This document shows positions 4,053 through 38,128 of a stretch of DNA of 48,451 nucleotides, piece after piece. Made by a program: the position numbers and the translations under genes. The first letter of the stretch is position 1. Each line of letters begins with the position of its first letter. Source of the stretch: Verrucomicrobiia bacterium (GTDB lineage Bacteria > Verrucomicrobiota > Verrucomicrobiia > Limisphaerales > JADJPG01); assembly GCA_035715125.1 (NCBI GenBank), contig DASTLJ010000153.1:1-48451 (forward strand). The letters are read 5' to 3'. The notes beneath the pieces are model-generated. The model searched no databases. It saw only the letters and a program-made list of their open reading frames with translations, and was not told where the DNA came from.

Positions 4053-4304
4053 GCCACCAATACCAATGATAGATTGAAACTCTTCACTCCAACTTCGCCC
4101 TCTCCGGCACGTGCGAAATCTCCAGAGCGATATACAACGCGGTCGTTTCATAACCACTACACTGGACAAGCCCTAATGCGCTCGTACAAGGATTATGATG
4201 CAGACGCGCCAAACGCAAGAGAATTCACCAAGGCCGTCGGATTCATATTGCGACTCTGTCGCCGCATGAATCGCCTCGCAACGCAAGGCTCAACCTTTTT
4301 GAGT

Positions 4305-5156
4305 TCAAACTTGAGGCGGAACCTGAACTCGCCCGACCGCTAGCAGGATTCCGTGCAGCAGCGCGTGGGGATTTGGGGGGCAGCCGGGAATGTAAACATC
4401 CACCGGGATGACGGAGTCCACGCCCCCGCGCGTGGCATAGTTCACGCCGAAGATACCGCCGCTGCAACCACAGGCGCCGACTGCGACGACGAGCCGCGGC
4501 TGCGGGGTCGCGTCGTAGGTTTTCTTGAGAGCCATTTCCATGTTGCGCGTCACAGGGCCGGTGACCAGAAGCATGTCGGCGTGGCGAGGGGAGGCGACGA
4601 AATGGATCCCGAAGCGTTCGAGGTCATACACGGGGCTGTTGAGGCCGTGGATTTCGATCTCGCAGCCATTGCAGGAGCCGGCGTCCACCTGGCGGATGTG
4701 AAGCGATCGGCCGAGCACGGAATGAATGCGCTTCTGAAGTTGCTGGCCGAGCGTATTAAGCGAGTCGCCGCCAGGGCCAGCGGCCGCCGGTGCTTTGATT
4801 ATCCGCTCGTGGGTGCCGTCGCGAGCCAGATTGTATTTGGCCGTGAACTGGAGGCTGGCACGCCCGCGGGCGGCCAGTTCGCACTGATTCGTCATGCGGA
4901 TGGATTTGTCCACGTCGGCACACAGGCCGCAGAAGATGCACTTGCCCAGGTCAAGTGTCGCCGTGCGCGTCGTGTGTTGATCGCGAAACTCGATGGCGCC
5001 GGTCGGACAAATGGCGGCGGCGGGCCGGGCGTCTTTCCAATTCGCCCAATCAATCTCCGGTTTGCCGCGCGCGCGACTGGAGACTTCCGGCGGCGTCTCG
5101 GGATACCTCGTCGTGACAACGCCGGTCTTCAAACTTTGGCGCAGAGTTTCAAACAT
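4305..5156 (-). CDS. Fused HyfH/HycF-like ferredoxin + HyfI/HycG (NuoB-like) small subunit
   Basis: ORF 4305..5324 trimmed to ATG 5156, which lies 2 nt after the stop of the upstream gene at 5159. The N-half (AAICPTGAIEF...LDLGKCIFCGLCADV) is NuoI/HycF-type. The C-half (HIRQVDAGSCNGCEIEIHGL, FVASPRHADMLLVTGPVT, GACGCSGGIF, VDVYIPGCPP) is HycG/NuoB-type. Confidence 0.85.
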   Translation of the reverse strand: MFETLRQSLKTGVVTTRYPETPPEVSSRARGKPEIDWANWKDARPAAAICPTGAIEFRDQHTTRTATLDLGKCIFCGLCADVDKSIRMTNQCELAARGRASLQFTAKYNLARDGTHERIIKAPAAAGPGGDSLNTLGQQLQKRIHSVLGRSLHIRQVDAGSCNGCEIEIHGLNSPVYDLERFGIHFVASPRHADMLLVTGPVTRNMEMALKKTYDATPQPRLVVAVGACGCSGGIFGVNYATRGGVDSVIPVDVYIPGCPPNPHALLHGILLAVGRVQVPPQV

Positions 5157-5158
5157 GG

Positions 5159-6754
5159 TCAGCGATCCGTCCCCGAATAGGAGAGGTTGAAGCTTTTGTT
5201 CACGACCGGGAAATCCGGGATGATGTTGCCGAGAATGGCTTCGCTCAGCGCCGGCCAGTTTTGCAGCGAAGGGTCTTTCACTTTGCAACGCGCCAGCCGA
5301 TTGCCGGGCGCGGTGTGAACCCAATGGAAGATTTCGCCGCGCCAGCCTTCGACGTAGCCGAGGGCCACGCGGTCTGGCGGCACTTCGCCGACCTCCGTAC
5401 GAACAGGACCTTCGGGCAGCTTGGCCATGACCTGGCGGAGGATGCCAAAGGATTGGAACAACTCTTCCCGGCGCATCGCCAGGCGGCGTTGCACGTCGCC
5501 TTCGGTGAAGACCGGCACACTGAATTGCACCTGGTCGTAGAAGTCGTGCGGGAAGTCACGGCGCAGGTCATGGTCGAAGCCCGATGCCCGGCCTGCGATG
5601 CCGACGACCCCGAGGTCGCGCGCGGCCTTGGGGGTAAGGACGCCCGTCGTCTCCAGTCGATCGCGCGTGCCGGAGTGCGAACGGATCAACTCGGCCAGGT
5701 CGGTAAACTCGCGTTCGAACTCGTCCACGAACGTGGCCAACTCGCGGAGTTGACTGGCGTCGAAATCGAAGCGCACGCCGCCGAGGGCCGCCATGCCCCG
5801 CAAGAGGCGGTTGCCGGTGAGTTGTTCGTTCACGCGCAGCACGCGTTCCTTGAGCCGCATCGCGTGCATGTGCGCGGTGACGAACGCCACGTCCGTGCAA
5901 ATCGCGCCGATGTCGGCGACGTGATTGTAGAGCCGTTCCAGTTCGAGGCAGACGGTGCGGAGGGCGCGGGCGCGCGGCGGCGCCTCGGCTCCGCTGGCCC
6001 GTTCGACGGCATGGCAAAAGGCCGTCGCGTGCGCGAAACTGGAATCGCCCGAAAGACTTTCCGCCAGCCGAACGCCGTGAGAAATCGGCAGGCTCTCAAA
6101 AAGTTTCTCCGTCCCTTTGTGCACGTAAAACATCCGCAGTTGCAGGTAGAGCACCGGCTCGCCCGCGACGCTGAACAAGAAGTGTCCGGGCTCGATGATG
6201 CCCGCGTGCACCGGGCCGACGGGCACCTGGAACACGCCTTCGCCCTCGACCTCGCGGAACTTGTGCCGCGCGCCGGTGAAGGGCGGCAGTTGCGTGCGCA
6301 CGTCGAAATCCTTGCGCAGCGGATGGACCTCCGGCCAGTCATCGTGCAGCACGCAGCGGCGCGGATTTGGATGGCCGATCAGTTTGATGCCGAACAGATC
6401 CTGGATTTCGCGCTCCTGCCAATCGACCGCGGGAATGGCGTTGGTGAGCGAAGCCAATTCCGGCTGGTCTTGAGGAATGGGAACACGCACCAGCACGAAC
6501 CCGTGCGCCGCGTCGAGCGCGTAAAGGTAATAGACAAAGAATACCTGATGCGCGGCGCGGGCGTCCTCGGCGAACACGCCGGCGAGACGCGCATTGTATT
6601 TTTTGTAAAACACGGAGCAGAGGGCGCTTGCCAGTTCCAGTTTCGCGTGGAGATAGAGCTCGTTCGGCTGCGGCGCGGGCGCGCGCTCGATTTGAGAGCC
6701 GAAACGCTGAGTCAGTTCGTCGAGCACCGTTCGCAATTCCGGGAGCAGATTCAT
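5159..6754 (-). CDS. HyfG/HycE-like large subunit (NuoC-NuoD fusion) lacking the [NiFe] cysteine ligands
   Basis: ORF 5159..7180 trimmed to ATG 6754, giving an ATGA overlap with the upstream stop at 6751. The NuoC-like part contains WQEREIQDLFGIKLIGHPNPRR. The NuoD/HycE-like part contains VGPVHAGIIEPGHFLFSVAGEPVLYLQLRMFYVHKGTEKL and LERLYNHVADIG. LAESLSGDSSFAH replaces the CGxCxxxH motif, and the protein ends in SFNLSYSGTDR. Confidence 0.9.
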   Translation of the reverse strand: MNLLPELRTVLDELTQRFGSQIERAPAPQPNELYLHAKLELASALCSVFYKKYNARLAGVFAEDARAAHQVFFVYYLYALDAAHGFVLVRVPIPQDQPELASLTNAIPAVDWQEREIQDLFGIKLIGHPNPRRCVLHDDWPEVHPLRKDFDVRTQLPPFTGARHKFREVEGEGVFQVPVGPVHAGIIEPGHFLFSVAGEPVLYLQLRMFYVHKGTEKLFESLPISHGVRLAESLSGDSSFAHATAFCHAVERASGAEAPPRARALRTVCLELERLYNHVADIGAICTDVAFVTAHMHAMRLKERVLRVNEQLTGNRLLRGMAALGGVRFDFDASQLRELATFVDEFEREFTDLAELIRSHSGTRDRLETTGVLTPKAARDLGVVGIAGRASGFDHDLRRDFPHDFYDQVQFSVPVFTEGDVQRRLAMRREELFQSFGILRQVMAKLPEGPVRTEVGEVPPDRVALGYVEGWRGEIFHWVHTAPGNRLARCKVKDPSLQNWPALSEAILGNIIPDFPVVNKSFNLSYSGTDR

Positions 6755-8223
6755 TGACCCCCTCCTAACACTTGCGCCGCGGTCCGCACCAGTTCGTAAA
6801 TCGGCGCGGGCAGCACCAGTCCAAGCGCGACCGCCGGCACGGCCACCAGCAGCATCGCGCCGAGCTTCCACGGGCACTCCGTGCCGCGCGCTGTGTCGGG
6901 CGCGGGCTGGCCTAGATTCAGCTTCGACATGCGCACCAGGAACCCTGCGAAAATCGCGACGATGCCCGCGACGATCAAGCCCGCCGCCCAGGGGCGGTCC
7001 GCCGCCAGCGCCGCGCTCAGGGCCGTGAACTCGCTCTGGAACAGGCTGAAGGGCGGGACGCCGGTGATGGCCACCGTGCCCATGAGAAACAGCGCGCCCG
7101 TCCACGGCAGCGTATGAATGACGCCAGTGACTTTGCGGAAATACGGCGTGCCGAAGTGCTGCTGGACGTTGCCCGCGCAAAAAAACATCAACGGCTTGGT
7201 CACACCGTGGAAAAGCATGTGCAGCACCATGCCCAGCGCGCCGAGTTTGCCGCCGAACCCCAGCGCCGCGATCATGATGCCCGACTGGTCGATGCTCGAA
7301 TAGGCGAGCAGCCGGCGGAAATTCCGTTGGGTGAGCACGAACGGCGCGGCGACCAGGATGGAAACAACGCCGAAGACCACGAGCAGGTTCCCGGCATACT
7401 CATGGCCAAGGCATTTGGCAGCCAGGGTGTAGAAACGCGCGATGCCATAAACCGCGCAGTTGATGAACCCGGCGCCCAGCAGCGCGGCCGCGGGCACGGG
7501 GGCTTCGGCGTAGGCATCGGGTTTCCAGGTGTGCATCGGCACCAGGCCGGCCTTCGTTCCGTAGCCGACGAGCACCAGCACGAACGCCAGGCGCATCGCG
7601 GCAGGCTGGCATTGGCCAGCCACCTCGATGAGCACTGACCAGTTGAAGCCGTGCGCCGCGTGCTTGCCCAGCGCTGGCAGCGCCGCAAAGTAGGTTAGGA
7701 CCGTGCCCAACAACGCCAGCGCGATGCCGGCACTGCCGATGATGATGTATTTCCACGCGGCTTCGAGGGAACTTTTCTGATTATAGAAGCGCACCAACAA
7801 GACCGACGCAAGCGTGGTGGACTCCATTGCGACCCAAAGCAGGCCCAGACTGTTTACCAGCGGCACGGCCATCATCGTGCCCACGAAGATCGGGGTGAGC
7901 ACGTAGTAGCGGTGCAGCAGAATTGCGTTGATTTTTCCCGCACGCTCTTCGCCGCGCAGATACCCGATGGCGTATCCGGCGCACGCCAGCGCGACGAACG
8001 CGATAAGGCCCACCACCAGGGCGCTGAGGGCGTCCGCGCGCAGGAAACCGCCGAAAGCTTCGACCGTGCCGCGCGCGAGGACTTGCGCTCCAAGCCCCGC
8101 CGCGAGGGCGGCAACCATGCAGAAGCCGAGCAGATTCAACCGCTCCAGCACGGCCCGCTCGCGCAGCGGCCAGCAAGCCAGGCCGGTGAGCAAAGGCACG
8201 AGGACGAGGAGCACCAAGATCAT
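6751..8223 (-). CDS. Antiporter-like subunit (HyfF/HyfD; NuoN/NuoM family)
   Basis: ORF 6751..9528 trimmed to ATG 8223, giving an ATGA overlap with the stop at 8220. It starts MILVLLVLVPLLTG. Motifs: GYGTKAGLVPMHTWKPDAYAEAP, LLAYSSIDQSG, FHGVTKPLMFFCAG. The protein is polytopic and hydrophobic. Confidence 0.85.
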   Translation of the reverse strand: MILVLLVLVPLLTGLACWPLRERAVLERLNLLGFCMVAALAAGLGAQVLARGTVEAFGGFLRADALSALVVGLIAFVALACAGYAIGYLRGEERAGKINAILLHRYYVLTPIFVGTMMAVPLVNSLGLLWVAMESTTLASVLLVRFYNQKSSLEAAWKYIIIGSAGIALALLGTVLTYFAALPALGKHAAHGFNWSVLIEVAGQCQPAAMRLAFVLVLVGYGTKAGLVPMHTWKPDAYAEAPVPAAALLGAGFINCAVYGIARFYTLAAKCLGHEYAGNLLVVFGVVSILVAAPFVLTQRNFRRLLAYSSIDQSGIMIAALGFGGKLGALGMVLHMLFHGVTKPLMFFCAGNVQQHFGTPYFRKVTGVIHTLPWTGALFLMGTVAITGVPPFSLFQSEFTALSAALAADRPWAAGLIVAGIVAIFAGFLVRMSKLNLGQPAPDTARGTECPWKLGAMLLVAVPAVALGLVLPAPIYELVRTAAQVLGGGQ

Positions 8224-9701
8224 GGCACTCCTCGAATGATGTTCGCCGCTTGCTCCATCAGTTGACGGACGGAAGCCGGCAGCCAGGCGGTGAACAAGAG
8301 CAGCGTTCCGAGCGGCAGGCTCATCGCCGCGACGTTGCTGGCTGAAATGGCCTCGCGCGGGTGTTCGCCGCCGGTCGGACCGAGCAGCACTCCGGCGAGT
8401 TTGGTCAGCACGCCGCAGAAGACAAGGATGAGGGCCGCCAACATCACCACGCTCACCCAGACGTGGTTCGACGTGAAGCCGCCGGCAAGGACCGTCAGTT
8501 CGCTCACGAACATGCCGAATGGCGGCAGGCCGCTCACGGCTGCGGCGGCCAGGGCCAGCAACAGCGCCGTCACCGGCATGGCGCGCACCAGGCCAGGGCC
8601 GATGCTGCGGAACTCGAGCGCATGAAATTGCTGGTGGATGTTGCCCGCCGCGAAGAACAGCACGGGCTTGGTCAGCGCGTGGTAACCCATGTGCAGCAGC
8701 GCGCCGAAGACGGTGAGCGGCGCGTTCATGCCAACAGCCACGCAAATCAGGCCGACGTGTTCCAGGCTGGAGTACGCCAGCATCCGCTTGAGATTCTTTT
8801 GCACGAGAATGAACGGCCCGGCCAGGAGCATTGAAAGCAATCCGAAGCCCAGGAGCAGATTGCGGCTGAAAGCGGAGTCGAGACAGGCCGTGGTGAGGAT
8901 GTGGAAGCGCAGCAGCGCATAGACGGCGATCTTCAGTGACACGCCGGAGAGCATCGCGCTGGTCGGCGACGGCGCTTCGCTGTGCGCGTCGGGCAGCCAG
9001 GTGTGCATCGGTGCCAGGCCAGCCTTGGTGCCGTAACCAATCAGTACGAAAATGAAAGCCAGCGTGATAAGGCGAGGGTCGAGCCGCGGCGCCAGCGCCA
9101 ACAGGCGCGACCAATTGAAGCTCGGCAGGGTTTCGCCGCCCGTCTTGCCGACCGCCGCGGCGTAAATGAAGATGGTGCCAAACAAGGCCAGCACCAGACC
9201 CAACCCGCCGAGCATGACGTATTTCCACGCCGCTTCGAGGGAGCTCTTGCGATTGTAGAGCGCCACCAGCAGCACCGACGAAAGCGCCGTGGCTTCCACC
9301 GCAATCCACATCACGCCGAGATTGTTCGCCAGCACGACGAGCAACATGCCCGTGGTGAACAATGGCGTAAGCACGTAAAACTCGCGGAAGCGCCTCTCGG
9401 TCACGGCCGCCTCGGCCAGCTCGCGCCGGAAGTAACGCACGGCGTAGAGCGACGTGGCCAGCGACACGACCGAGATGAGCAACACCATCCACGCGCTCAA
9501 GGCGTCGGCGCGCAGGAACTCGGCCCACTCGGTCACTGGCGCGCCGTGACTGGCCAGCACGGCTTTGAGCAACTTCACCCCGAGGACCAGGACCGTCAGG
9601 AATCCCACGATGTTGAGCCCCTCCACCAGCCCCCGTGGCCGGGCGACCAGACAGAGCAGCCCGACGACGAGGGGAGCGCAGAGGATGGAGCTTAGCAGCA
9701 T
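8220..9701 (-). CDS. Antiporter-like subunit (HyfD/HyfF; NuoM/NuoN family)
   Basis: 493-aa ORF. Motifs: GYGTKAGLAPMHTWLPDAHSEAP, MLAYSSLEHVG, YHALTKPVLFFAAGN. It is a paralogue of the downstream gene. Confidence 0.85.
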   Translation of the reverse strand: MLLSSILCAPLVVGLLCLVARPRGLVEGLNIVGFLTVLVLGVKLLKAVLASHGAPVTEWAEFLRADALSAWMVLLISVVSLATSLYAVRYFRRELAEAAVTERRFREFYVLTPLFTTGMLLVVLANNLGVMWIAVEATALSSVLLVALYNRKSSLEAAWKYVMLGGLGLVLALFGTIFIYAAAVGKTGGETLPSFNWSRLLALAPRLDPRLITLAFIFVLIGYGTKAGLAPMHTWLPDAHSEAPSPTSAMLSGVSLKIAVYALLRFHILTTACLDSAFSRNLLLGFGLLSMLLAGPFILVQKNLKRMLAYSSLEHVGLICVAVGMNAPLTVFGALLHMGYHALTKPVLFFAAGNIHQQFHALEFRSIGPGLVRAMPVTALLLALAAAAVSGLPPFGMFVSELTVLAGGFTSNHVWVSVVMLAALILVFCGVLTKLAGVLLGPTGGEHPREAISASNVAAMSLPLGTLLLFTAWLPASVRQLMEQAANIIRGVP

Positions 9702-9705
9702 GAGA

Positions 9706-10389
9706 TCACCACTTCAGTTCGTTGAGCTTGCTCACGTCCATCGAGGCGAACGTTTCGCGGATGCGAAACACGAGAATGCCGAGCACCATCACCGCAATGA
9801 CCACATCGAAGAAGATGCCGATTTCAACCACCAGCGGCATGCCATAGGAGGTCAGGACGATGGCCGCGAGCATGACGCCGTTTTCCATCGTGAGCAGCGC
9901 GAGCACCTGAGTGATGGCTTTGCGGCGGTTGATCATCAGAAAAAAGCCGGTCAGCAGCAGCGCGATGGCCACGGCGAGTGTGTTGCTGCCGAGCCGCTCC
10001 AGGGAAACGATTGGGCGAGCCACGACGTAGGCGAGCACGGTCAACGCGCCGCAGATGAGCATGGACGCAGGCGCGTTGGCAAAGGGTTGAATCTCCTGCT
10101 CGATTCTGATTTGGCGCACCAGGCGCTCCAGCCGCCACGGGAGGAAGATCACTTTGCCAGCCAGCGTGAGCACCACCACGACGTAAACGTGCCAGGCGTG
10201 GTAGGCGTAGCCGACGACACCGGCAATGGCGGCGAGCAGGAGGGATTGCATTGCGAAAATGCGGATGCTCGTGACGAGCATCGGCTGCACGGCCAGCAGG
10301 ACTTGCAGCACCAGCATCAGCGCGGCCAGCAGTGTGATGAATTGAGAGCCGGTTTCGGAGGGGGGTGGGGGCATGGTTAGAATTCGCAA
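9706..10389 (-). CDS. HyfE-like small membrane subunit (NuoK-like)
   Basis: 227-aa hydrophobic ORF of HyfE-like length, containing LALLTMENGVMLAAIVL, and sitting in the Hyf gene-order position. ATG 10374 is an alternative start. Confidence 0.75.
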   Translation of the reverse strand: MRILTMPPPPSETGSQFITLLAALMLVLQVLLAVQPMLVTSIRIFAMQSLLLAAIAGVVGYAYHAWHVYVVVVLTLAGKVIFLPWRLERLVRQIRIEQEIQPFANAPASMLICGALTVLAYVVARPIVSLERLGSNTLAVAIALLLTGFFLMINRRKAITQVLALLTMENGVMLAAIVLTSYGMPLVVEIGIFFDVVIAVMVLGILVFRIRETFASMDVSKLNELKW

Positions 10390-10466
10390 TTTGTCAGGCT
10401 GAACAATGTGGATACGGCGGCTTCGCCCGGCTTGTTTTTCGCGCGCGAGAGCTTAATGTCATCCCC

Positions 10467-10697
10467 ATGAGTTCTGCCTTGCAGGCCCAACTTCTGGAAA
10501 AGTGCGGCAAGGTGCCCGCCGAGAGAGTACGCGAAGTGCTCGACTTCGCGGAATTCCTGGCGAGCAAGTCGTCGGCGCATTCGAAAGGCAAGCGCCACCG
10601 GCCCAACCGCTCCCTGCGCGCGTACGTCGGAGGCGTGCGCCACGGCGCGCTGGCGCGGGAAATTGACCATGAGCTCTACAACGGCGCTGTTCGTTGA
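10467..10697 (+). CDS. Putative DUF2281-like type II antitoxin (orphan), antisense within the hyf-like operon gap
   Basis: Internal ATG of ORF 10365..10697. The product is MSSALQAQLLEKCGKVPAERVREVLDFAEFLASKSS... The 'P-E...VLDF.EFL' signature is typical of DUF2281 antitoxins paired with PIN toxins. Confidence 0.45.
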   Translation: MSSALQAQLLEKCGKVPAERVREVLDFAEFLASKSSAHSKGKRHRPNRSLRAYVGGVRHGALAREIDHELYNGAVR

Positions 10698-10761
10698 CAC
10701 CTGGGGCTGGGTCGTCATCGGAACAGGAAGGTTGAGACTAGCGCCAGCGTTGCCAGGATGA
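10669..10761 (+). pseudogene. Possible truncated PIN-domain toxin remnant (30 codons)
   Basis: ATG 10669 overlaps the antitoxin 3' end, as in TA operons. It encodes MSSTTALFVDTWGWVVIGTGRLRLAPALPG*. LFVDTxxW resembles a PIN N-terminal strand with its catalytic Asp. The frame stops at 10759-10761, inside the convergent hyfC-like 3' end. Confidence 0.25.
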
Positions 10762-11659
10762 ACGCGGCGCTCAGCAGGTCGGGCACGCGAAACAGCCGGA
10801 GCTTCGCGTTGGTGAACTCGACCAGCACGACCGCGCCGGCCAGCACGAGTAACTTCGCGACAAAGAAGAGCAGGCCCAGTCCAAAAGCCGCCACAGTCGG
10901 CTCCGCTGCCAAACCGACCGGGAAAAAGATGTTCGCCAGCAGCGCCATGAGGACGAGTTGCTTGATGGACGCGCCCCACTCGATGAGCGCCAGGTAGCGG
11001 CCCGAATACTCCAGCAGCATTGCCTCGTGAATCATCGTCAACTCCAGGTGCGTGGCCGGGTTGTCCACCGGGATGCGTCCGGTCTCGGCCAGCAGCACAA
11101 TGAACATCGCCGCGAAGGCCAGCGCGTGGGCGGGATCGAGGAAGGTCCAGCCGGGCCCCTGGCTGGCGAGAACGATTTGGCTGAGGTTCGTCGACCCCGC
11201 CGTGATGGCGACCGTGAAAATCGCGAGCATCATCGCCGGTTCGGCGACGGCGGCCAGAGTCATTTCGCGGCTGCTGCCCATGCCGCCGAACGGGCTGGCG
11301 GGGTCCAGTCCCCCCAAGGCCAGGAAAAATCGGCCCAGTGCCATCAAGCCGACCACGGCCAGCACGCCCCCGAACAGGCTCATCGGCGCGAGCGCGGTGA
11401 CCATCGGCACCATCAGCCCGGCCGAAAGCGCCGTGACAAACAACACATGGGGCGTCAGCGAAAAAATCCACGAGGCGTGCTCCGAGATGACCATGTCCTT
11501 GCGCAGAAATTTCGCCATGTCAAAATAAGGCTGCCAGAGGGGCGGACCGCGGCGGTTCTGGAGTTTAGCTTTCCAGTTCCTGATGAGCCCGCTGAGCAGC
11601 GGCGCCAGCAGGAGCAGGAGCGCGGCTTGAAGGAAGATGGCCAGCGGACTGAGGTTCAT
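10715..11659 (-). CDS. HyfC/HycD-like membrane subunit (NuoH family)
   Basis: ORF 10715..11992 trimmed to ATG 11659, starting MNLSPLAIFLQAALLLLLAPLLSG. Motifs: RNWKAKLQNRRGPPLWQPYFDMAKFLRK, LLAETGRIPVDNPATHLELTMIHEAMLLEYSG. Confidence 0.85.
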   Translation of the reverse strand: MNLSPLAIFLQAALLLLLAPLLSGLIRNWKAKLQNRRGPPLWQPYFDMAKFLRKDMVISEHASWIFSLTPHVLFVTALSAGLMVPMVTALAPMSLFGGVLAVVGLMALGRFFLALGGLDPASPFGGMGSSREMTLAAVAEPAMMLAIFTVAITAGSTNLSQIVLASQGPGWTFLDPAHALAFAAMFIVLLAETGRIPVDNPATHLELTMIHEAMLLEYSGRYLALIEWGASIKQLVLMALLANIFFPVGLAAEPTVAAFGLGLLFFVAKLLVLAGAVVLVEFTNAKLRLFRVPDLLSAAFILATLALVSTFLFR

Positions 11660-11676
11660 GGCAGGAACTTCGGCGG

Positions 11677-11757
11677 ATTGGAGTGATGGAGTGATGGAGT
11701 GCTGGGGGCGACCGCGCGTCGGAGTTTCCCAGCACTCCAGCACCCCATTACCCCATT
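11677..11757. repeat. Heptamer-built hairpin (GGAGTGA-type) inside the operon
   Basis: GGAGTGATGGAGTGATGGAGTGCTGGG - 21 nt - CCCAGCACTCCAGCACCCCATTACCCCATT. The core stem GGAGTGCTGGG/CCCAGCACTCC is perfect. It lies between the hyfB-like stop (11775) and the hyfC-like start (11659). Confidence 0.8.
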
Positions 11758-11774
11758 CTTCCCGGTAAGCGTGG

Positions 11775-13823
11775 TCATAGCGCGAAAAGCAGCAGCAACA
11801 GCAGCGTGATGAAGATGTAGAGCAGGTAGGCGTGGATGCTGCCCGCCTGGAGGGCGCGGATGTGGCGCGAGCCCCGCAGAATCCAAATCCGCAGCGGCCG
11901 GTAAATGCGCCGCTCGAACACCTCTTCGACGCGGCTCTCGAATCGGAGGGAGGTCGCGAAGTAAGGCGAGAAGTCGTATTCGCGTTGCACATCGCGGTGG
12001 GGGCGGAACAGGGCCTTGAAGATCATGCGAATGGGTTTCGAGAAACCGGTCGCCGTGTATTCCATTTGGGGTGTCAGGCCGCGCTGGCCGCAGTCCCACG
12101 TCGGGCCGCGCCGCGTCCTGGCGTTACGCGCAAAGACCAGCCAGAGCGCGAAGGGAATCAGGAGAAAACTCAGGCCCATGAACAGGATGCCCAGCGTCGA
12201 AAGCGTCCCGGCGTTCGCGCCTGGCGCAGCCAGGACGAAGCCGCCCGCAACGATGAGTTGCTCGCTGAGTTGTCGACCCGTGAGCTGTTGCGTCAGCGGG
12301 TCCATCAGCCTGACGAACGTGGTCGGAAACAATCCAAGCGCGACGCACGCGGCCGTAAGGACCGCCATGCCGAAGAGCATCGCAGGCGACGCTTCATGCG
12401 CTTGCCCGGCGCGTTCGCTGCGGGGCTGGGCCAGGAAAGTGATGCCGAAGGCCTTGACGAAGCACGCCGCGGCCAGCGCGCCGGTCAACGCCAACATCGC
12501 GCCGCTGAGCGGGAAAATGAGGCGCACAAGACTTTCCGTCGTGCCGAACCCTTGGAGCAACGCTTGATAGGTGAGCCACTCGCTGACAAACCCGTTGAGT
12601 GGCGGCAGCGCGGAAATGGCCACCGCGCCCACGAGGAAGTAAAAAGCCGTCTGCGGCATTCGTTTGACCAGGCCGCCCAGGGCCTCCATGTTGCGCGTGC
12701 CGGTGGCGTGCAGCACCGCGCCCGCGCCGAGGAACAGCAACCCTTTGAACACCGCATGGTTTACGGTGTGATAGAGGCCGGCAATCAGCGCCAGCGACGC
12801 CAGCAGGGGGTGGCCCGAGTGGAGGAACATCAATGCCGCGCCCAGGCCGATGAGGATGATGCCGATGTTCTCGATGCTGTGATAAGCCAGCAGGCGCTTG
12901 AGGTCATGCTCCATCAGCGCGTAGAGCACGCCGAGCACGGCCGAGACTGTCCCAAGGACCAGCACGGTCACGCCCCACCAAAGTGGCGGCGGGCCCAGGA
13001 ATTCGAAGCAGACGCGGGTCAGCCCGTAGATGCCGCTCTTGATGAGCACGCCGGACATGAGCGCCGAGACGTTGCTGGGCGCGACCGGATGCGCGGCCGG
13101 AAGCCAGATGTGCAACGGCACGATGCCGGCCTTGATGCCGAAACCGAGCAGGAACAGGACGAACGCCGCGTTGCGTTTGCCGGGCGACATCTTCGCGCCG
13201 AGATCGTGCAGGCTGTCGAAACCGTAGTCGCCCGAAGCCTGGAAAAGCAGAAGGAAGCCAAGGATGACGCACCCGGCGTCGATGTGCGACATGATGAAGT
13301 AGAGGACACCCGCGTCACGTGTCTCCGGCTTCTCGTGCTCGAAACTCACCAGACAATACGCCGTCAGCGCTATGATTTCCCACGCGATGAGGAACAGCCA
13401 GATGTTGTCCGCCACGAAGACGAGCGTCGTGGCGAGCAGCAACGCGTTGAAGAAGGCCCCGAGCAAGCCGACGTTTTTGCGGCCAAAGAACCCCTTCGCG
13501 TAGCCGAGCGAGTAGGCCGACAGCGCGAAGCCCAGCAGGGAGACGATGAGCAGAAAGAACGCGCCCAGCGCGTCGAGCCGCACGCTGAATTTGATGTAGG
13601 GAATGAGGGCCGGCAGCAGCTCGAATTGCGGAGCCGTAGCGCCCGTTCCTCGGGCGAGATGAAGAATGGCTGCAACCAGGCCGCACAACGCGGCGAGCGA
13701 GCCCGCGCCGAACGAGCAGACGTTAGCCACCTTCTCGCGGCGCACAAACACCAGGCCGGCCACAGAGCCGAGGAGATAGCCGCAGAGCGACGAGATGAGC
13801 AAGGTGGCGGGTTGGAGGTTCAT
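11775..13823 (-). CDS. HyfB-like antiporter-type subunit (NuoL/MrpA family)
   Basis: 682-aa ORF. Motifs: GIKAGIVPLHIWLPAAHPVAPSNVSALMSGVLIK, LLAYHSIENIG, NHAVFKGLLFLGAGAV. Its length is close to that of E. coli HyfB. Confidence 0.9.
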   Translation of the reverse strand: MNLQPATLLISSLCGYLLGSVAGLVFVRREKVANVCSFGAGSLAALCGLVAAILHLARGTGATAPQFELLPALIPYIKFSVRLDALGAFFLLIVSLLGFALSAYSLGYAKGFFGRKNVGLLGAFFNALLLATTLVFVADNIWLFLIAWEIIALTAYCLVSFEHEKPETRDAGVLYFIMSHIDAGCVILGFLLLFQASGDYGFDSLHDLGAKMSPGKRNAAFVLFLLGFGIKAGIVPLHIWLPAAHPVAPSNVSALMSGVLIKSGIYGLTRVCFEFLGPPPLWWGVTVLVLGTVSAVLGVLYALMEHDLKRLLAYHSIENIGIILIGLGAALMFLHSGHPLLASLALIAGLYHTVNHAVFKGLLFLGAGAVLHATGTRNMEALGGLVKRMPQTAFYFLVGAVAISALPPLNGFVSEWLTYQALLQGFGTTESLVRLIFPLSGAMLALTGALAAACFVKAFGITFLAQPRSERAGQAHEASPAMLFGMAVLTAACVALGLFPTTFVRLMDPLTQQLTGRQLSEQLIVAGGFVLAAPGANAGTLSTLGILFMGLSFLLIPFALWLVFARNARTRRGPTWDCGQRGLTPQMEYTATGFSKPIRMIFKALFRPHRDVQREYDFSPYFATSLRFESRVEEVFERRIYRPLRIWILRGSRHIRALQAGSIHAYLLYIFITLLLLLLFAL

Positions 13824-14090: not shown

Positions 14091-14588
14091 TCAGTTCACG
14101 ACTGGCTTGGATGGCTCGCCTATCGCGCTGCCCCGCAAGGTAATTTGCTGAAGCAATTCAAAAACCTGGAATGTGTCTTGCGCGGTATGGAGTTCCTCCA
14201 CGAGCCGCCTCTCTTTGGCCAGGCGCGCCAGGCCGGAGATGAGTTGCAGGTATTGAGTTGAATCGGTCGCTGGCACGGCAATGAGAAAAACCAGGCGCAC
14301 GGATCGGGCAGCCTTGGCACCCCAGCCCAACGGTTCGGCGCTGCGGCCGAGAGCGAATGCAAGCCCGTTAAGCCCGGGCGCGCGTGCGTGAGGGAAGGCC
14401 ATCCCCGCCTCCATTTCCGTGCTCAGGAGGTATTCACGGTTCAGCGCCGCGTGGTAGAAAGGCAGCAAGTCCGGGATGCGCCCTTTGCGCTGGAGCGCCT
14501 GGCCCAGTTCCTGGATCACGCTGGCGACATCCTTGCCACGCAGGCTCGGAATGATGAGGCCCGGACTGGTGAAATCGGCCAGCGTCAT
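14091..14588 (-). CDS. PTS EIIA type-2 domain protein (PtsN/EIIA-Ntr-like)
   Basis: 165 aa. Contains LIIPSLRGKDVASVIQELGQAL, GMAFPHARAPGL (the phosphorylatable His context) and VRLVFLIAVP. Confidence 0.8.
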   Translation of the reverse strand: MTLADFTSPGLIIPSLRGKDVASVIQELGQALQRKGRIPDLLPFYHAALNREYLLSTEMEAGMAFPHARAPGLNGLAFALGRSAEPLGWGAKAARSVRLVFLIAVPATDSTQYLQLISGLARLAKERRLVEELHTAQDTFQVFELLQQITLRGSAIGEPSKPVVN

Positions 14589-14612: not shown

Positions 14613-14969
14613 CTAAACACCTCGCGAGGACGCCCGCTTGCGGGGCCGCTTGGCCTTCGGTTCGACCGGTGCCGGCGCCGACGATCCTCCCTTGGTCAGC
14701 CCGAGGGGTTCGTCCTCCGGCAGGTAAAGAATGCGCGTGCAGTTGTCGCAGTAGTGAATTTCGGTCGTGTAAGCCAGGGCGGCCAGCGTGCCCGACGGGA
14801 GGCGCAAATGACAATCACAGCAAACGCCGTTGCGTACGATGGCCACTGCTCGTTTCCCTCGGCCAACCCAGCGGTCAAATCTCTCCAGGACAGTGGCCGG
14901 GATTTGCGCGCGAAGCTTTTCGAATTGCTCTTCCTGCTCGGGGGTGAGGCGCCGGTTTTCAAGTTTCAT
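14613..14969 (-). CDS. Zinc-ribbon protein (zf-RING_7 / COG1579 C-terminal type)
   Basis: Contains VRNGVCCDCHLRLP...IHYCDNCTRILY, i.e. two CxxC pairs. The start is set at ATG 14969 (MKLENRRL) because the sigma-54 promoter sits only 13 nt from the longer ATG at 15008. Confidence 0.6.
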   Translation of the reverse strand: MKLENRRLTPEQEEQFEKLRAQIPATVLERFDRWVGRGKRAVAIVRNGVCCDCHLRLPSGTLAALAYTTEIHYCDNCTRILYLPEDEPLGLTKGGSSAPAPVEPKAKRPRKRASSRGV

Positions 14970-15019: not shown

Positions 15020-15036
15020 CGCAAAGGCCGTGCCGA
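15020..15036 (-). promoter_or_regulatory. Sigma-54 (-24/-12) type promoter
   Basis: The minus strand reads TCGGCACGGCCTTTGCG, i.e. cGGCAC-N5-TTGC with canonical spacing. It lies about 50 nt upstream of ATG 14969 and directly downstream of a sigma-54 enhancer-binding-protein gene. Confidence 0.5.
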
Positions 15037-15276: not shown

Positions 15277-15470
15277 GCGCCTCGCGGAGCGAGGCGGTGA
15301 CGGTAGCCGTAGGCTTCAGCCCACGGATAGATCGCAACGACGGTAAGCGTCGCGGAGCGACGCTTGAACTTTGGTTCTGTGGCTATCAAGCGTCGCTCCG
15401 CGACGCGCCTCCCTCCCGCGCCGGTCCGTGGGCTGAAGCCCACGGCTACCCTCATGAAGTCGCTCCGCGA
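15277..15470. repeat. Cluster of nested palindromic REP-like units
   Basis: CGCCTCGCGGAGCGAGGCG (15277-15295). Arms GTAGCCGTAGGCTTCAGCCCACGG (15302-15325) and CCGTGGGCTGAAGCCCACGGCTAC (15425-15448). GCGTCGCGGAGCGACGC (15346-15362) and its complement (15389-15405). A third GTCGCTCCGCGAC lies at 15459-15470. Confidence 0.8.
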
Positions 15471-15560: not shown

Positions 15561-16943
15561 CTACTCGGTTGCAGCTTGCTCGTCTCCCAGCAGCCCGTAT
15601 CGCTTGAGCTTGTATTGGAGCGAGCGTCGGCTGATGCCCAGGAGCTTGGCGGCCTCTTCGCGATTGGACGTCACATGCGTCAGCGTCTGACGGATGAGCA
15701 ATTTCTCCACTTCAACCAGGGCCATGCCGGGGCGGATGGTGAACGTGGCAGAATGCTTATCGTGGGCCCGAAGAAAGTCCGGCAGTTGGCTGATTTCGAT
15801 CGTCGGCTTGTGGCAGGTCAGCACGAGTCGCTCCGTGACGTTGCGCAGTTGGCGCACGTTCCCCGGCCAGGGAAACCGCTGGCAAAGCTGCATGGCCTGG
15901 GTCGAAAGGGTCTTGCGCCGCCGCTTGTGCCGGGTAGTGAAATGTTCCAGGAACGACTCGATGAGCAGCGGGATGTCCTCGGCCCGTTCTCGCAAGGGCG
16001 GGATGGGGATGGGAATGATTTGAAGCCGATACCAAAGGTCTTCACGGAATTTTCCCGCCGCCACGGCTTCCTGAAGGTTTTTGTTCGTCGCCGCCACGAC
16101 GCGCACATTCACCCGCACAAGTTCCGTGCCGCCCACCATGCGGAATCCGCCGTCTTCGAGCACGCGCAGCATGTCGCCCTGCCCCTTGGCGGGCAGATCG
16201 CCAATTTCATCCAGAAAGAGTGTGCCGCGATCGGCCAGTTGGAACCGGCCCGGCTTGTTGGCAATGGCGCCCGTGAATGCGCCCTTGACGTGGCCGAACA
16301 ACTCAGTTTCCAGCAACGTCTCGGGCAACGCCGCGCAATTGACCGAGATGAACGGCTTGTCGGCACGCGCGCTCTTCAGGTGAATGTAACGGGCGATGAG
16401 TTCCTTGCCAGTGCCGCTTTCGCCTTCGATGAGCACAGTGACTTCGCTGCGGGCCACCTCGTCGGCCAGCCGGAGGACGTTTCGGATGCCCTCACTATTG
16501 CCGACGAGCGGACCGGGTTCGGAGCGCCTGCGCAGCCTCATCCGCAGTTCGTGGTTCTCCGCGACGACCGCCTGAAACTCCAGCGCCTTGAGCACCAGGG
16601 CGCGCAATCGCTGCATGTCGAGGGGCTTGGAAAGGTAATCGTACGCCCCCTCCTTCATCGCTTCGACGGCGCTTTCGACCGTGCCGAACGCCGTCATCAG
16701 AATGAACAACGTGTCGGCGCTCTTCTGCCTGGCCTCCTGGAGCAATTGCAGCCCGCTCAGCTCTGGCATCTTCACGTCGGTGAGAACCAGATTGTAAAGC
16801 CGTTCGCCAACGAGCCGCAACGCGGTCCGCGCATCATTGGCCGCGTCCACCGAATAGCCCTCGCGCTTCAGCGCCTCCTGCACGCCCGCACAAAGGCCCC
16901 GTTCGTCGTCCACCACCAGGATGTTGATTCGGGATTTATCCAT
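15561..16943 (-). CDS. Sigma-54-dependent response regulator (NtrC family)
   Basis: Receiver domain (ILVVDDE...LVLTDVKMP), AAA+ sigma-54 interaction domain (GESGTGKELIARYIH, ELFGHVKGAFTGA) and a C-terminal Fis-type HTH (EAAKLLGISRRSLQYKLKRY). Confidence 0.92.
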   Translation of the reverse strand: MDKSRINILVVDDERGLCAGVQEALKREGYSVDAANDARTALRLVGERLYNLVLTDVKMPELSGLQLLQEARQKSADTLFILMTAFGTVESAVEAMKEGAYDYLSKPLDMQRLRALVLKALEFQAVVAENHELRMRLRRRSEPGPLVGNSEGIRNVLRLADEVARSEVTVLIEGESGTGKELIARYIHLKSARADKPFISVNCAALPETLLETELFGHVKGAFTGAIANKPGRFQLADRGTLFLDEIGDLPAKGQGDMLRVLEDGGFRMVGGTELVRVNVRVVAATNKNLQEAVAAGKFREDLWYRLQIIPIPIPPLRERAEDIPLLIESFLEHFTTRHKRRRKTLSTQAMQLCQRFPWPGNVRQLRNVTERLVLTCHKPTIEISQLPDFLRAHDKHSATFTIRPGMALVEVEKLLIRQTLTHVTSNREEAAKLLGISRRSLQYKLKRYGLLGDEQAATE

Positions 16944-17766
16944 GAGGTTCTAGGGCGACCGCGAGCGGCAATTGCAGCGTGAACACGGCTCCGCCTTCGG
17001 GCGCATTAGCGGCTTGGATCATGCCGCCATGAGCCACAACGATCTGTTGAACAATCCACAAGCCCAGGCCGCTGCCATCGGATTTCGTGGTAAAGAAAGG
17101 CTCGAAAATCGCCCCTTCACGCTCCACGGGCAGGCCCGGCCCCGTGTCGCACACCGCAATGGACAGGATACCGTTCCTGGGGTCGGCCGCGGCGCTTGCG
17201 ATGACGCTCCCTTTTTTTTCAACGGCCTGAATCGCGTTGATGACCAGGTTCACCAGCGCCTGCGTGAGCTGGCCGGGATCGGCCAGGACCGACGGCAAAT
17301 CGGGCGGCACGTCCGCCACAATTTCAATCTCCCGACAAGCCGCTTCGGGCCGCAAAAGCTCGCACACGTGGCCGACGAGCCGGCCGACCTCGACCGGCTG
17401 GAGGTCGAGGGACGACGGCCCGGCCAGGTTGAGAAACTGTTTGACGAGGTTTTCGAGCCGGTGCAATTCGCCCCGCATGATTTCCAGCCGCCCCATCGTC
17501 TTGTCGCGCAGTTCCGGCGCGGCCCTTGCCAGGTCTTCTTCCAGCAATTGCACGTGGATGTCCAGCGAGCTGAGCGGATTGCGGATCTCATGGGCCAGTC
17601 GCGCCAGGAGCCGCGACAACAGAAGCTGTTTTTCCTGGGCGGCCAGCTTGCCCACATCCTGCCCGAGCGCCCTGGCCAAAATGCGTTCCATATCTCGAAG
17701 GAAGTCTATTGAGGAGTTGGACTGGGAGAAACCAGAATATTGTCCGCTCACACCAGCCGGGCGCAT
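16936..17766 (-). CDS. Histidine kinase without recognisable sensor or TM domain
   Basis: H-box LARLAHEIRNPLSSL, N-box LVNLVINAIQA, G-boxes DTGPGL and GSGLGL. It overlaps the regulator gene by 8 nt. Confidence 0.85.
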   Translation of the reverse strand: MRPAGVSGQYSGFSQSNSSIDFLRDMERILARALGQDVGKLAAQEKQLLLSRLLARLAHEIRNPLSSLDIHVQLLEEDLARAAPELRDKTMGRLEIMRGELHRLENLVKQFLNLAGPSSLDLQPVEVGRLVGHVCELLRPEAACREIEIVADVPPDLPSVLADPGQLTQALVNLVINAIQAVEKKGSVIASAAADPRNGILSIAVCDTGPGLPVEREGAIFEPFFTTKSDGSGLGLWIVQQIVVAHGGMIQAANAPEGGAVFTLQLPLAVALEPHG

Positions 17767-17774: not shown

Positions 17775-17852
17775 CGTGATGCGTGATACGTGGTGCGTGA
17801 AACGACTGGAATTACGCTTTCCTTTCACGCATCACGCACCACGCATCACGCT
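17775..17852. repeat. Heptamer-built hairpin (CACGCAT-type)
   Basis: CGTGATGCGTGATACGTGGTGCGTGAAA - loop - TTTCACGCATCACGCACCACGCATCACG. It lies between the MOSC gene stop (17846) and the kinase start (17766). Confidence 0.75.
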
Positions 17853-18484
17853 TCACTCCTCGCTTCCCCCCTCGCCAGCACCTGAATCGGCGCTCCCACC
17901 GCCGCCTCGCCCGACTCAACCACCTTCCAATAAATGCCCCGCAGATTTTGCTCCCGCGTCGGCTGCGCGTTGACGAAGTGAAGCGCGTCTGAACCGAACC
18001 GTTCCTTGAACTTTGCGCAGCCGTTGTGCGCCAGGGGTGTCACCTCGACGATGGCTCCGCCCACCCGCAGGCGCGAACCGACCGGGAGATTGGCGACCGA
18101 GATGTCGAGGTCGACGAAAAGATTGTCCCCGAAGACGGTGAGCGGTTGGCCATTGGCGATCAGTTCGGCCACGTCGCGGCGCATGACGGCGAGCTGGGCT
18201 TCAAGCTTGCGCGGCGTGCGCCGGCCCCAACTATCGCCGGGCACTCCGTCTTCCGCCGTCAAGTGCACGCGTTCGGGCGTCTCCCGAAGGCCCTCGCCGC
18301 TGCGGCACACGATGAGGGCTAGGCGTCCCAAATCTTTGGGCGCGCCAGGCAGCTCGCGCAGGCGCGCCTCCAACTCCGCAAGCGGGCGATGACAGGAGGA
18401 GTCACCGTGCGGTTCGTCAGTCTTCGTTTGTAGTTCAGCCATAGTAAGTGCGCTGTCTGACGGAAACGCGGGCGTCGGCATCAT
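17846..18484 (-). CDS. MOSC domain-containing protein
   Basis: Contains LLIANGQPLTVFGDNLFVDLDIS..LPVGSRLRVGGAIVEVT..HNGCAKF...LRGIYWKVVESGEAAVGAPI. ATG 18442 is an alternative start. Confidence 0.75.
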   Translation of the reverse strand: MMPTPAFPSDSALTMAELQTKTDEPHGDSSCHRPLAELEARLRELPGAPKDLGRLALIVCRSGEGLRETPERVHLTAEDGVPGDSWGRRTPRKLEAQLAVMRRDVAELIANGQPLTVFGDNLFVDLDISVANLPVGSRLRVGGAIVEVTPLAHNGCAKFKERFGSDALHFVNAQPTREQNLRGIYWKVVESGEAAVGAPIQVLARGEARSEA

Positions 18485-20232: not shown

Positions 20233-20673
20233 ATGAAACTCTCCGGTGCTTACACCCTCGCCGCGCCGCGCGACAAAGTCTTCGCCGCCATCACCGACCC
20301 CGCCGTGCTCCAACGGGTGATCGACGGCTGCGAAAAGATGGTGAAAACCGGCGAGGATTCCTACGACGCTCACCTCAAGATCGGCGTGGCCGGGCTCAAG
20401 GGCAGCTACGTCGGCAAAGTGCAGCTCAAGGATCTCAAGCCGCCGGAGTCCTACACGCTGGTCATCGAAGGCAAGGGCGGGCCGGGCTTCGTGAAGGGCT
20501 TGGCAATGATTCAACTCGCCGACAAAGCCGGCTCGACGGAGATCAAGTGCGACGCCGAGGCGCAAGTGGGCGGGATGATCGCCGCGCTCGGCTCGCGTCT
20601 CATCGAGCCGGCGGCCAAAAAGATGATGGACGATTTTTTTCGGAAGTTCGGCGAGGTGCTCGGGGCGAAGTAA
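20233..20673 (+). CDS. coxG: SRPBCC family protein, CoxG-like
   Basis: 146 aa. Starts MKLSGAYTLAAPRDKVFAAITDPAVLQRVIDGCE and contains KIGVAGLKGSYVGKVQL and AEAQVGGMIAALGSRLIEPAAKKMMDDFF. Confidence 0.85.
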   Translation: MKLSGAYTLAAPRDKVFAAITDPAVLQRVIDGCEKMVKTGEDSYDAHLKIGVAGLKGSYVGKVQLKDLKPPESYTLVIEGKGGPGFVKGLAMIQLADKAGSTEIKCDAEAQVGGMIAALGSRLIEPAAKKMMDDFFRKFGEVLGAK

Positions 20674-20674
20674 G

Positions 20675-20756: not shown

Positions 20757-20760
20757 CCGC

Positions 20761-34493: not shown

Positions 34494-34500
34494 CTCGGAT

Positions 34501-38054: not shown

Positions 38055-38128
38055 GCAGGTGCGCGGAGGGTATTCCAAACAGCCCGCCAGGCAAGCACTG
38101 GCTGGTCTGCACTGGATGGCAGAACGCG

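Follow-up and report, generated by a model that had tools for sequence, protein, structure and literature searches.

We analysed a window of 48,451 nucleotides from a Verrucomicrobiia bacterium (assembly GCA_035715125.1, contig DASTLJ010000153.1, positions 1 to 48,451). Positions 4305-13823 carry seven co-directional minus-strand genes, here called g1 to g7, each an intact open reading frame (ORF), for a membrane complex resembling hydrogenase-4 (Hyf). The comparisons below support its assignment to the Ehr type (energy-converting or Ech hydrogenase-related), a seven-subunit membrane machine that appears to derive from group-4f-like [NiFe] hydrogenases, and they indicate that its Ni-Fe pocket is not merely lost but rebuilt into a conserved polar site. 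A sequence-only reading of this DNA had proposed the Hyf-like subunit identities, with which our profile searches agree. The genes are as follows.

11775..13823, minus strand: g1, HyfB-like antiporter-type subunit, 682 aa (NCBIfam and Pfam)
10715..11659, minus strand: g2, HyfC/NuoH-like subunit linking the peripheral and membrane arms, 314 aa
9706..10389, minus strand: g3, HyfE-like subunit with a NuoK-like C-terminal half, 227 aa from a TTG start, with an ATG five codons in
8220..9701, minus strand: g4, HyfF-like antiporter-type subunit with canonical channel residues, 493 aa
6751..8223, minus strand: g5, second, diverged HyfF-type subunit, 490 aa
5159..6754, minus strand: g6, NuoC-NuoD-fused HycE-like large subunit without [NiFe] ligands, 531 aa
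4305..5156, minus strand: g7, fused HyfH/NuoI-like and HyfI/NuoB-like Fe-S subunit, 283 aa

Among the membrane subunits, g1 matched the NCBIfam model for hydrogenase-4 subunit B at 758 bits against an equivalog cut-off of 667 bits, the sole subunit to pass such a cut-off, and also Pfam Proton_antipo_M (2e-55). Its Glu in transmembrane helix 5 (TM5) and its Lys residues in TM7, TM8, and TM12 are present in 61-63 of 63 HyfB-type sequences. The g2 product matched Pfam NADHdh/NuoH (6e-49) and is 74-91% identical across Verrucomicrobiota loci, and g3 matched the NCBIfam hydrogenase-4 membrane subunit (HyfE-like; 6e-28, under the cut-off) and Pfam Oxidored_q2 (3e-07). Both g4 and g5 were recognised as NCBIfam HyfF (3e-129 and 2e-122, respectively). 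The g4-type sequences retain the TM5 Glu, TM8 Lys, and TM12 Lys in 64 of 64 cases and the TM7 Lys in 63 of 64. In g5, the TM8 Lys is replaced by Asn and the Leu of the TM7 motif HxWLPDAH by Lys, each in all 33 orthologues; these fixed changes hint that the channel lysine has moved. This third antiporter-like subunit is optional: of 62 related loci that contain hyfB, 35 carry a g4-type HyfF alone. We considered and rejected a recent tandem duplication of g4 and g5: the DNA copies are only ~70% alike, and the g5 type is a stable paralogue with invariant substitutions of its own.

Large subunit and iron-sulfur subunit

The g6 product combines the Pfam domains Complex1_30kDa and Complex1_49kDa, and its best match in a phmmer search of the PDB was E. 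coli HycE (7z0s_E, 3e-83). Residue alignment to HycE (PDB 7Z0S) located the counterparts of the two motifs, L1 and L2, that hold the [NiFe] Cys ligands.

6029..6058, minus strand: L1-equivalent SLSGDSSFAH, residues 233-242, facing RVCGICGFAH of HycE; Cys replaced by Ser235 and Ser238, Asp237 acquired
5162..5188, minus strand: L2-equivalent NLSYSGTDR, residues 523-531, then the stop codon, facing DPCYSCTDR of HycE; Cys replaced by Ser525 and Gly528

The four [NiFe] Cys columns are therefore occupied by Ser235, Ser238, Ser525, and Gly528, and g6 has neither of the Cys pairs of the group 4 signatures RxCGxCxxxH (L1) and DPCxxCxxR/H (L2). Both the Cys-to-Ser replacement at L1 and the loss of the L2 ligands at the C-terminus had been called in the sequence-only reading. 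The canopy Asp of HycE (D529) corresponds to Asn523, and the new Asp237 sits between the former L1 Cys positions. The whole protein contains six Cys residues, none of which forms a CxxC, CxxxC, or CxC pair and none of which is conserved across the family. A shifted ligand set, the check that the earlier reading had suggested, is excluded by the alignment and the Cys-pair scan, because no Cys pair is present and no Cys is conserved. The same reading had pointed to the missing maturation tail; the protein does end at DR, but this has no diagnostic value, as the same ending is seen in the Cys-bearing sister hydrogenases described below. The ~30-residue C-terminal extension was confined to HycE-like sequences among the compared matches.

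The AlphaFold2 model of g6 (predicted local distance difference test score 93.5; predicted template modelling score 0.94) had low confidence only at the beta1-beta2 loop, residues 182-187. By Foldseek, it superposed on 7z0s_E with a template modelling (TM) score of 0.95 and a root-mean-square deviation of 1.9 A, and on E. coli NuoCD with a TM score of 0.90.

The positions of the lost ligands are themselves conserved. In our orthologue set, drawn from 80 Verrucomicrobiota loci, the L1 motif AES(I/L)SGDSSFAHATAF was nearly fixed, with AES(I/L)SGDSSFAH in 70 of the 80 orthologue ORFs. The L2 motif (V/I)NKSFNLSYSGTDR was nearly fixed too, with NKSFNLSYSGTDR in 72 of the 80. Across an alignment of 63 Cys-less sequences (32-92% identity), the beta1-beta2 loop V179-G190 (including Glu188), Y526, G528, and D530 were invariant, and G236, D237, H278, R389, E431, R472, and S525 were at least 90% conserved. 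The former metal pocket has become a conserved polar pocket of Ser235, Gly236, Asp237, Ser238, Asn523, Ser525, Tyr526, and Gly528.

The proton supply to this site is also retained. Combining the HycE alignment with the residue roles described for formate hydrogenlyase (FHL), in which HycE E193 is the loop Glu, H284, R395, and E437 form the substrate-proton path, and R478 is the canopy Arg (PMC9474812), we mapped these residues to Glu188, His278, Arg389, Glu431, and Arg472 of g6, respectively. The beta1-beta2 loop Glu and the substrate-proton path are traits of group-4 hydrogenases that g6 keeps. The complex is nevertheless predicted to be unable to make or use hydrogen, because the nickel-iron site is lost.

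The Fe-S subunit g7 matched Pfam Oxidored_q6 (NuoB; 4e-34) plus Fer4_7, and NCBIfam HyfH/HycF-like (1e-16) on residues 1-113. It also matched MbhJ (5e-44), HycG (4e-43), and HycF (4e-09). Two sets of cluster ligands were recognised, with Cys counts taken from 76 orthologues.

4380..4673, minus strand: C162, C165, C229, and C259, ligands of the proximal (N2/G1-equivalent) [4Fe-4S] cluster, invariant in the 76 orthologues
4920..5009, minus strand: C50 (the 'CP' Cys of motif 1) and C73, C76, and C79 (motif 2), the sole remaining HyfH-like [4Fe-4S] site, invariant in the 76 orthologues

The proximal-cluster ligands, with the motif SCNGCEIE, aligned with GSCNGCDIE of MbhJ, GGCNGCEIE of HycG, and GCPP, so that the four cluster Cys noted in the sequence-only reading of the NuoB-like module are confirmed. 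The HyfH-like domain keeps only four of eight Cys; the other ferredoxin Cys columns hold W40, A46, and gaps, and the corresponding domain of 14 paralogues keeps all eight. Going by the T. thermophilus Nqo9 assignment and the standard 2x[4Fe-4S] ferredoxin ligation pattern, the retained site would be the N6b equivalent adjoining the proximal cluster and the lost site the distal, donor-facing one. The peripheral arm keeps a two-cluster wire, composed of one HyfH-like [4Fe-4S] cluster and the NuoB-like proximal cluster.

Relatives, selection and class membership

A search of 1.84 billion cluster representatives with g6 gave 1201 matches below 1e-30. Of the 118 full-length top matches, 66 were Cys-less (33-52% identity) and 18 were sisters with all four Cys; HycE-like proteins were more distant. 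The replacement signature SGD[S/T]...NLSY[S/A]G is recognisable in the 66 distant Cys-less clusters, with an L1 core of xGD/xSD in 61 (S-G-D proper in 51) and an L2 of NLSY(S/A)G in 44. The columns that most strongly separate Ehr from the Cys-bearing sisters are 235, 525, and 528, three of the four ligand columns, together with 495 (Pro versus Ala). The sisters invariably have Cys at column 238, which varies in Ehr, and Asp237 was acquired in Ehr. A rough neighbour-joining tree, built from 113 representatives after masking of the ligand columns and lacking support values, placed g6 inside one large Cys-less clade, sister to a Cys-bearing group-4f-like clade. This placement agrees with a paper that puts Ehr near group 4f (PMC10284858).

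The Ehr assignment, which the sequence-only reading had also proposed, follows because the [NiFe] ligands are absent, the small-subunit ligands are present, NuoH- and antiporter-like subunits lie in the operon, and the protein falls in the Cys-less clade. The operon accordingly combines the features of the literature definition: a group-4/NuoD-homologous large subunit whose L1 and L2 Cys ligands are gone, a small subunit with the proximal cluster, clustered NuoH-, HyfE-, and antiporter-like subunits, and a position near 4f. By published description, the Geobacter Ehr (GSU0739-0745) likewise joins a Cys-less hydrogenase-like large subunit, a Cys-bearing small subunit, and HyfE-, NuoH-, and NuoL/HyfB-like subunits in one operon.

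The class has already been described and the operon is common in Verrucomicrobiota. Marreiros et al. 2013 and Coppi 2005 are said to be the primary Ehr descriptions. Ehr was named in Geobacter (GSU0739-45) and later generalised. Papers of 2019-2026 describe it as devoid of CxxC motifs and of unknown function, and the sequence-only statement of an unknown substrate and role still agrees with them. It has been reported in Margulisbacteria, Saganbacteria, Melainabacteria, Nitrospira, ammonia-oxidising archaea, and the verrucomicrobial genus Methylacidiphilum. It is widespread: among its carriers are ammonia-oxidising archaea, Geobacter, nitrifiers, Verrucomicrobiota (both methanotrophs and soil members), Aquificota, Binatia, and candidate phyla. 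It sits between hydrogenases and complex I, and some authors treat it as dead genes. Our incremental additions are the pocket signature, the proton path, the distal-cluster loss, the optional and altered third antiporter-like subunit, and a unit of a sigma-54-type promoter, a zinc-ribbon gene, and an EIIA gene upstream. Within the class, the Verrucomicrobiota lineage is marked by this upstream unit, by a fused HyfH-HyfI subunit with one ferredoxin-type cluster, and by the optional second HyfF-type subunit with its Lys-to-Asn and Leu-to-Lys substitutions.

Pairwise dN/dS (the ratio of nonsynonymous to synonymous substitution rates) between the window and 9-73 orthologue pairs had medians of 0.13-0.19 for six subunits, all but g3; these medians are approximate, because many pairs are near dS saturation. 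For g2 the value was ~0.13, and for g6 it was 0.11-0.16, with 0.11 in the closest pair, at dS 0.27. The six measured subunits are under purifying selection, and the operon is a live system rather than a decayed relic. It occurs in at least 134 species-level Verrucomicrobiota genomes, its closest relatives are found in Verrucomicrobiota metagenome-assembled genomes with genes 70-94% identical, and the synteny of g1-g5 is conserved across the 80 loci.

One of the Cys-bearing sisters, from an anammox planctomycete (P0271, group-4f-like, 46% identity), has the same order, HyfB-HyfC-HyfE-HyfF-large-fused(Fer4+NuoB), and these sisters share with g6 the loop GPxHAGIIEPGHF and an NKSF...Y...D(R/L) C-terminus without a cleavable tail; they differ in keeping the four Cys (AERICGVC...NKSFELCYSC). 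The actinobacterial (Aquicultor) Ehr and the anammox sister both show the order HyfB-C-E-F-large-fused(H+I). In the Binatia Ehr (L084, 4288-11584) the small subunit is encoded first and is NuoB-only, with 171 aa and no HyfH-like domain, which makes it the most reduced electron-input wire seen. In Nitrososphaerota and Persephonella, the core of the Ehr locus is preserved and the small subunit is encoded nearby or elsewhere. In some Verrucomicrobiota, a second Ehr-like operon of 38-40% identity was observed in tandem with the orthologue of the window operon, at the related loci L005, L010, L014, L024-L028, L038, L040, L042, L045, L047, L053, and L079; its large subunit has the motifs METVAGDTT...NKSFNLSYCGFDL, also without a full Ni-Fe ligand set, and its HyfH domain has eight Cys. 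The number of input clusters is two in this tandem paralogue, one in the window, and none in Binatia, and the electron-input wire appears to be undergoing shortening in different Ehr lineages.

Among better-known systems, E. coli formate hydrogenlyase (Hyc/Hyf, 7Z0S) is the best match of the large subunit in sequence and fold, and it shares the NuoC-NuoD fusion, the HycG-type CxxC, the proton path, and the HycF-like N-terminus. Compared with it, the window operon has no Ni-Fe ligands, 32-residue C-terminal extension, HycB, FdhF, or HycF peripheral Cys quartet; its HycF and HycG counterparts are fused, one cluster is lost, and antiporter-like subunits are more numerous. Complex I (NuoB, C, D, H, I, K, L, M, N) resembles the window complex in modular architecture, a Ni-free NuoD-type pocket, the N2-equivalent cluster, and the channel residues, whereas the window operon has no tandem-Cys N2 motif, NuoEFG, or separate NuoA or NuoJ. 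The respiratory complex MBS/MBX of Pyrococcus furiosus (6U8Y) is likewise hydrogenase-derived, with a large subunit that no longer produces H2. It is a far more distant relative (MbsL 7e-32, MbsH 2e-31), and it has another subunit composition and an Mrp-type module.

Operon structure and upstream genes

The sequence-only reading had described several of the seven genes as translationally coupled. This holds for g4/g5 and g5/g6, whose coordinates overlap in ATGA at 8220-8223 and 6751-6754, but g1/g2 and g2/g3 are uncoupled by inserts of 115 and 325 nt. In relatives, g2 and g3 abut and the g1/g2 pair abuts or overlaps (by 4 nt in the close relative L081/L082), and both inserts are absent.

11676-11758: hairpin with 31-nt arms (84% complementary) within the 115-nt g1/g2 spacer
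10390..10714: 325-nt insert between g2 and g3, breaking the translational coupling of relatives and containing an antisense DUF2281 ORF

The hairpin could serve in mRNA processing, stabilisation, or attenuation. The antisense ORF in the second insert, at 10365-10697 on the plus strand, matched Pfam DUF2281 (1e-06, antitoxin-like). Because g2 and g3 abut in relatives, the insert looks like a remnant of a toxin-antitoxin cassette within the operon. A PIN-like start after the DUF2281 ORF was considered as a toxin gene; it is only a 30-codon stub, beginning at 10669, so no toxin is claimed.

Upstream of g1, the following features were found.

14091..14588, minus strand: phosphotransferase system (PTS) EIIA type-2 protein (PtsN-like) with an FPH histidine motif (Pfam PTS_EIIA_2, 5e-23)
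14613..14969, minus strand: C4 zinc-ribbon protein, 118 aa (Pfam Zn_ribbon_9, 7e-09), ending 24 nt before the EIIA start
15021..15034, minus strand: sigma-54-type promoter-like element GGCACGGCCTTTGC (GGCAC-N5-TTGC), ~50 nt upstream of the zinc-ribbon ATG
15561..16943, minus strand: NtrC-type sigma-54 activator response regulator (Pfam Response_reg, Sigma54_activat (1e-67), and HTH_8)
16936..17766, minus strand: histidine kinase paired with the regulator (Pfam HisKA and HATPase_c), conserved in L001, L019, L027, and L037

In 19 related loci, hyfB is preceded by an EIIA gene in the same orientation, and in seven of them the distance shrinks to 12-90 nt; an ORF homologous to the zinc-ribbon gene is present in 18 of these 19. 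The NtrC-type regulator is syntenic beside the operon in related loci (73-81% identity). The window has two sigma-54-like matches against ~4 expected, and the element alone is not significant; in 13 of the 19 related loci, the same GGYAY-N5-YTGC element occurs in the stretch from the regulator gene to the EIIA gene, where the zinc-ribbon ORF also lies. The transcription unit therefore probably starts upstream of g1, with the sigma-54-type promoter, the zinc-ribbon gene, and the EIIA gene. Another sigma-54-like match, TGGCCGACTTTGTGC, ~64 nt before the g1 ATG, was unconserved in 46 related upstream regions and was dropped. In L004, the EIIA and hyfB genes flank a gene (1412-3307; Pfam Sulfate_transp, 2e-89) for a SulP-family transporter that includes a STAS domain. 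In L008, L032, L033, L036, and L065, a gap of ~1.9-2.1 kb occupies the same position, the gene itself being unannotated there; the SulP-STAS gene is absent from the window. The sequence-only reading of the complex was correct, but it had overlooked this sigma-54/zinc-ribbon/EIIA unit, the loss of the distal HyfH cluster, the variable number of antiporter-like subunits, and the intergenic insertions.

Partner enzymes and maturation genes were sought in the window and in related loci. As the sequence-only reading had stated, hyp, hycI, hyfA, fdhF, and nuoEFG were not found among the ORFs of the 48-kb window scanned with Pfam, and neither the NADH input module NuoEFG nor NuoA or NuoJ was found in the operon or the window. 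Using tblastn synteny and pre-annotated contigs, we found no redox partner in the 80 Verrucomicrobiota loci, the Ehr loci of Binatia, Persephonella, Nitrososphaerota, and Aquicultor, or the Cys-bearing anammox sister locus. In these other lineages and at the tandem Verrucomicrobiota operons, the neighbourhood offered neither a dehydrogenase nor a NuoEF-type module nor a connector of the HycB type. These methods replaced an all-against-all clustering of flanking ORFs, which was swamped by the antisense ORFs typical of high-GC DNA.

Proposed function and rival explanations

Selection on the operon, the rebuilt pocket, the kept proton supply, the shortened wire, and the missing linked partner together indicate a diffusible donor and chemistry at the old active site. 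We therefore lean, though not strongly, towards a ferredoxin-fed, ion-translocating Ehr oxidoreductase with an acceptor other than protons. A diffusible low-potential carrier, ferredoxin or flavodoxin, would dock on the shortened HyfH-like domain; ferredoxin is presumed here by analogy with Ech and Mbh. The two clusters would pass electrons on to the remodelled pocket, and a non-H+ acceptor would be reduced there with proton uptake. Menaquinone would be the most plausible single acceptor candidate in Verrucomicrobiota and nitrifiers, if a weakly supported one. Reduction at the pocket would drive, or in reverse be driven by, translocation of H+ or Na+ via HyfB and one or two HyfF-type subunits. 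Expression may occur on demand from the sigma-54 promoter under the adjacent NtrC-type two-component pair, with the EIIA(Ntr)-like protein and the zinc-ribbon protein, whose genes are probably on the same transcript, as probable regulators.

Several observations weigh against this proposal. Against a quinone acceptor, the two headgroup ligands of complex I, His38 and Tyr87 of T. thermophilus Nqo4, are missing, and Ile187 and Gly236 stand in their place in g6 (alignment to 2fug_4). The tandem Cys of N2 is replaced by a hydrogenase-type CxxC; such tandem Cys characterise complex I, whereas membrane-bound hydrogenases lack them (PMC9474812). Ehr has been reported in lineages without recognisable quinone biosynthesis (PMC6349859). 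The variation of input clusters among Ehr lineages, from two to one to none, argues against a single fixed mode of electron input. In the window genome, moreover, the 325-nt insert and the intra-operon hairpin may lower the expression of the downstream genes.

Among the rival explanations, a still-working group-4 [NiFe] hydrogenase of the Hyf or 4f type, with unconventional or shifted ligands, could appeal to HycE as the closest solved structure, to a HyfB above its NCBIfam equivalog cut-off, and to the nearest Cys-bearing sisters, which share the gene order and are likewise tail-less. With Ser, Ser, Ser, and Gly in the ligand columns, no Cys pair, none of the six Cys conserved, no hyp or protease genes in the window, and no rise in Ehr expression reported for Nitrospira in the presence of H2, it is refuted at the level of sequence, and we give it almost no credence. 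Hardly more credible is a non-functional hydrogenase relic drifting under relaxed selection, as a 2026 paper assumes in calling the Geobacter Ehr non-functional (PMC13194489). The two intergenic inserts that break translational coupling in the window genome would suit a relic, whereas dN/dS of 0.11-0.19 in every measured subunit, seven intact ORFs, and the spread over the species-level genomes counted above would not; the Fe-S ligands, channel residues, proton-path residues, and new pocket motif are also conserved across phyla. Improbable, if less so than these two, is a membrane module working with a formate dehydrogenase (FDH) encoded elsewhere, as in formate hydrogenlyase. The FHL-like ancestry and the greater abundance of Geobacter Ehr subunits on formate speak for such a complex, but no fdhF, HycB-type connector, or nuoEF was found in the window, the 80 related flanks, or five other lineages, and another acceptor would still be needed without a Ni-Fe site. 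In FHL, the path of the electrons from FdhF/HycB to HycG leads through clusters F1 and F2 of HycF (PMC9474812). On the Nqo9 assignment, the cluster lost from g7 would be the distal, donor-facing one. An FDH-Ehr complex has been raised in the literature for Margulisbacteria and Saganbacteria (PMC6349859).

Another rival is the reduction, at the remodelled pocket, of a soluble or membrane-associated substrate other than a quinone, for instance a small oxidant such as the sulfane sulfur used by Pyrococcus MBS. MBS offers a precedent for a Ni-free large subunit with new chemistry, and both the pocket without quinone ligands and the presence of Ehr in quinone-less lineages (PMC6349859) favour it. 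The similarity to MbsL (7e-32) is far weaker than that to HycE, however, no sulfur-metabolism genes are linked to the operon, and Ehr is common in aerobes with quinone chains (Nitrospira, ammonia-oxidising archaea, Methylacidiphilum), which leaves it unlikely. Slightly less unlikely is a redox-gated or regulated cation/proton antiporter, in which the Fe-S arm would sense redox state, the Asp/Ser pocket would bind an ion or water, and the EIIA(Ntr)-like protein would tune the activity. This would account for the lack of a recognisable acceptor site and for input clusters that are progressively lost, with none in Binatia. The pocket is acidic and polar, and the Cys-to-Gly change makes room at the former position of the metal cation. 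The EIIA gene probably shares the transcription unit, as does a SulP-STAS transporter gene in L004 and putatively in five other relatives, and EIIA-Ntr regulates K+ transporters in E. coli. Set against this are the conservation of the whole substrate-proton path with the canopy Arg and the invariance of the proximal-cluster ligands everywhere. The antiporter explanation is weakened because the conserved proton path is easier to explain by a persisting proton-consuming chemistry at the pocket.

Beyond the ferredoxin-fed oxidoreductase, a bolder version is conceivable, although we regard it as doubtful. The Ser-Gly-Asp...Asn-Leu-Ser-Tyr-Ser-Gly pocket, supplied with electrons by the proximal cluster and with protons along the former hydrogenase path, may be the active site of an undescribed respiratory reaction, with a new acceptor or a redox-driven ion-binding site, which Verrucomicrobiota would switch via sigma-54/NtrC and a PTS-Ntr-type EIIA. 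If so, the complex I superfamily, whose chemistries so far concern H+, quinone/phenazine, and sulfane sulfur, would gain a fourth with Ehr. Asp237, Ser235, Ser238, Ser525, and Gly528 are offered as residues for mutation, and the sigma-54/NtrC pair and EIIA as a regulatory handle.

Other genes surround the operon. Directly downstream, window positions 1-4172 (minus strand) encode a secreted protein of very large size, in which at least six Big_7 Ig-like domains were recognised; it exceeds 1390 aa, is truncated by the window start, and its adjacency to the operon is not kept in relatives. A MOSC-domain gene (17846-18484, minus strand) lies just upstream of the histidine kinase gene. A CoxG-like (SRPBCC) gene (20233-20673, plus strand) lies ~6 kb upstream of the operon; there are no CO dehydrogenase genes in the window. 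PSCyt2/PSD1 proteins are also encoded in the window (Pfam). Several families of REP-like GC-rich intergenic palindromes were observed, at 15282-15470, at 20663-20768 and 40121-40205, at 22417-22522 and 34394-34495, at 38128-38197, and at 17776-17856; two of the families recur at distant sites in the window.

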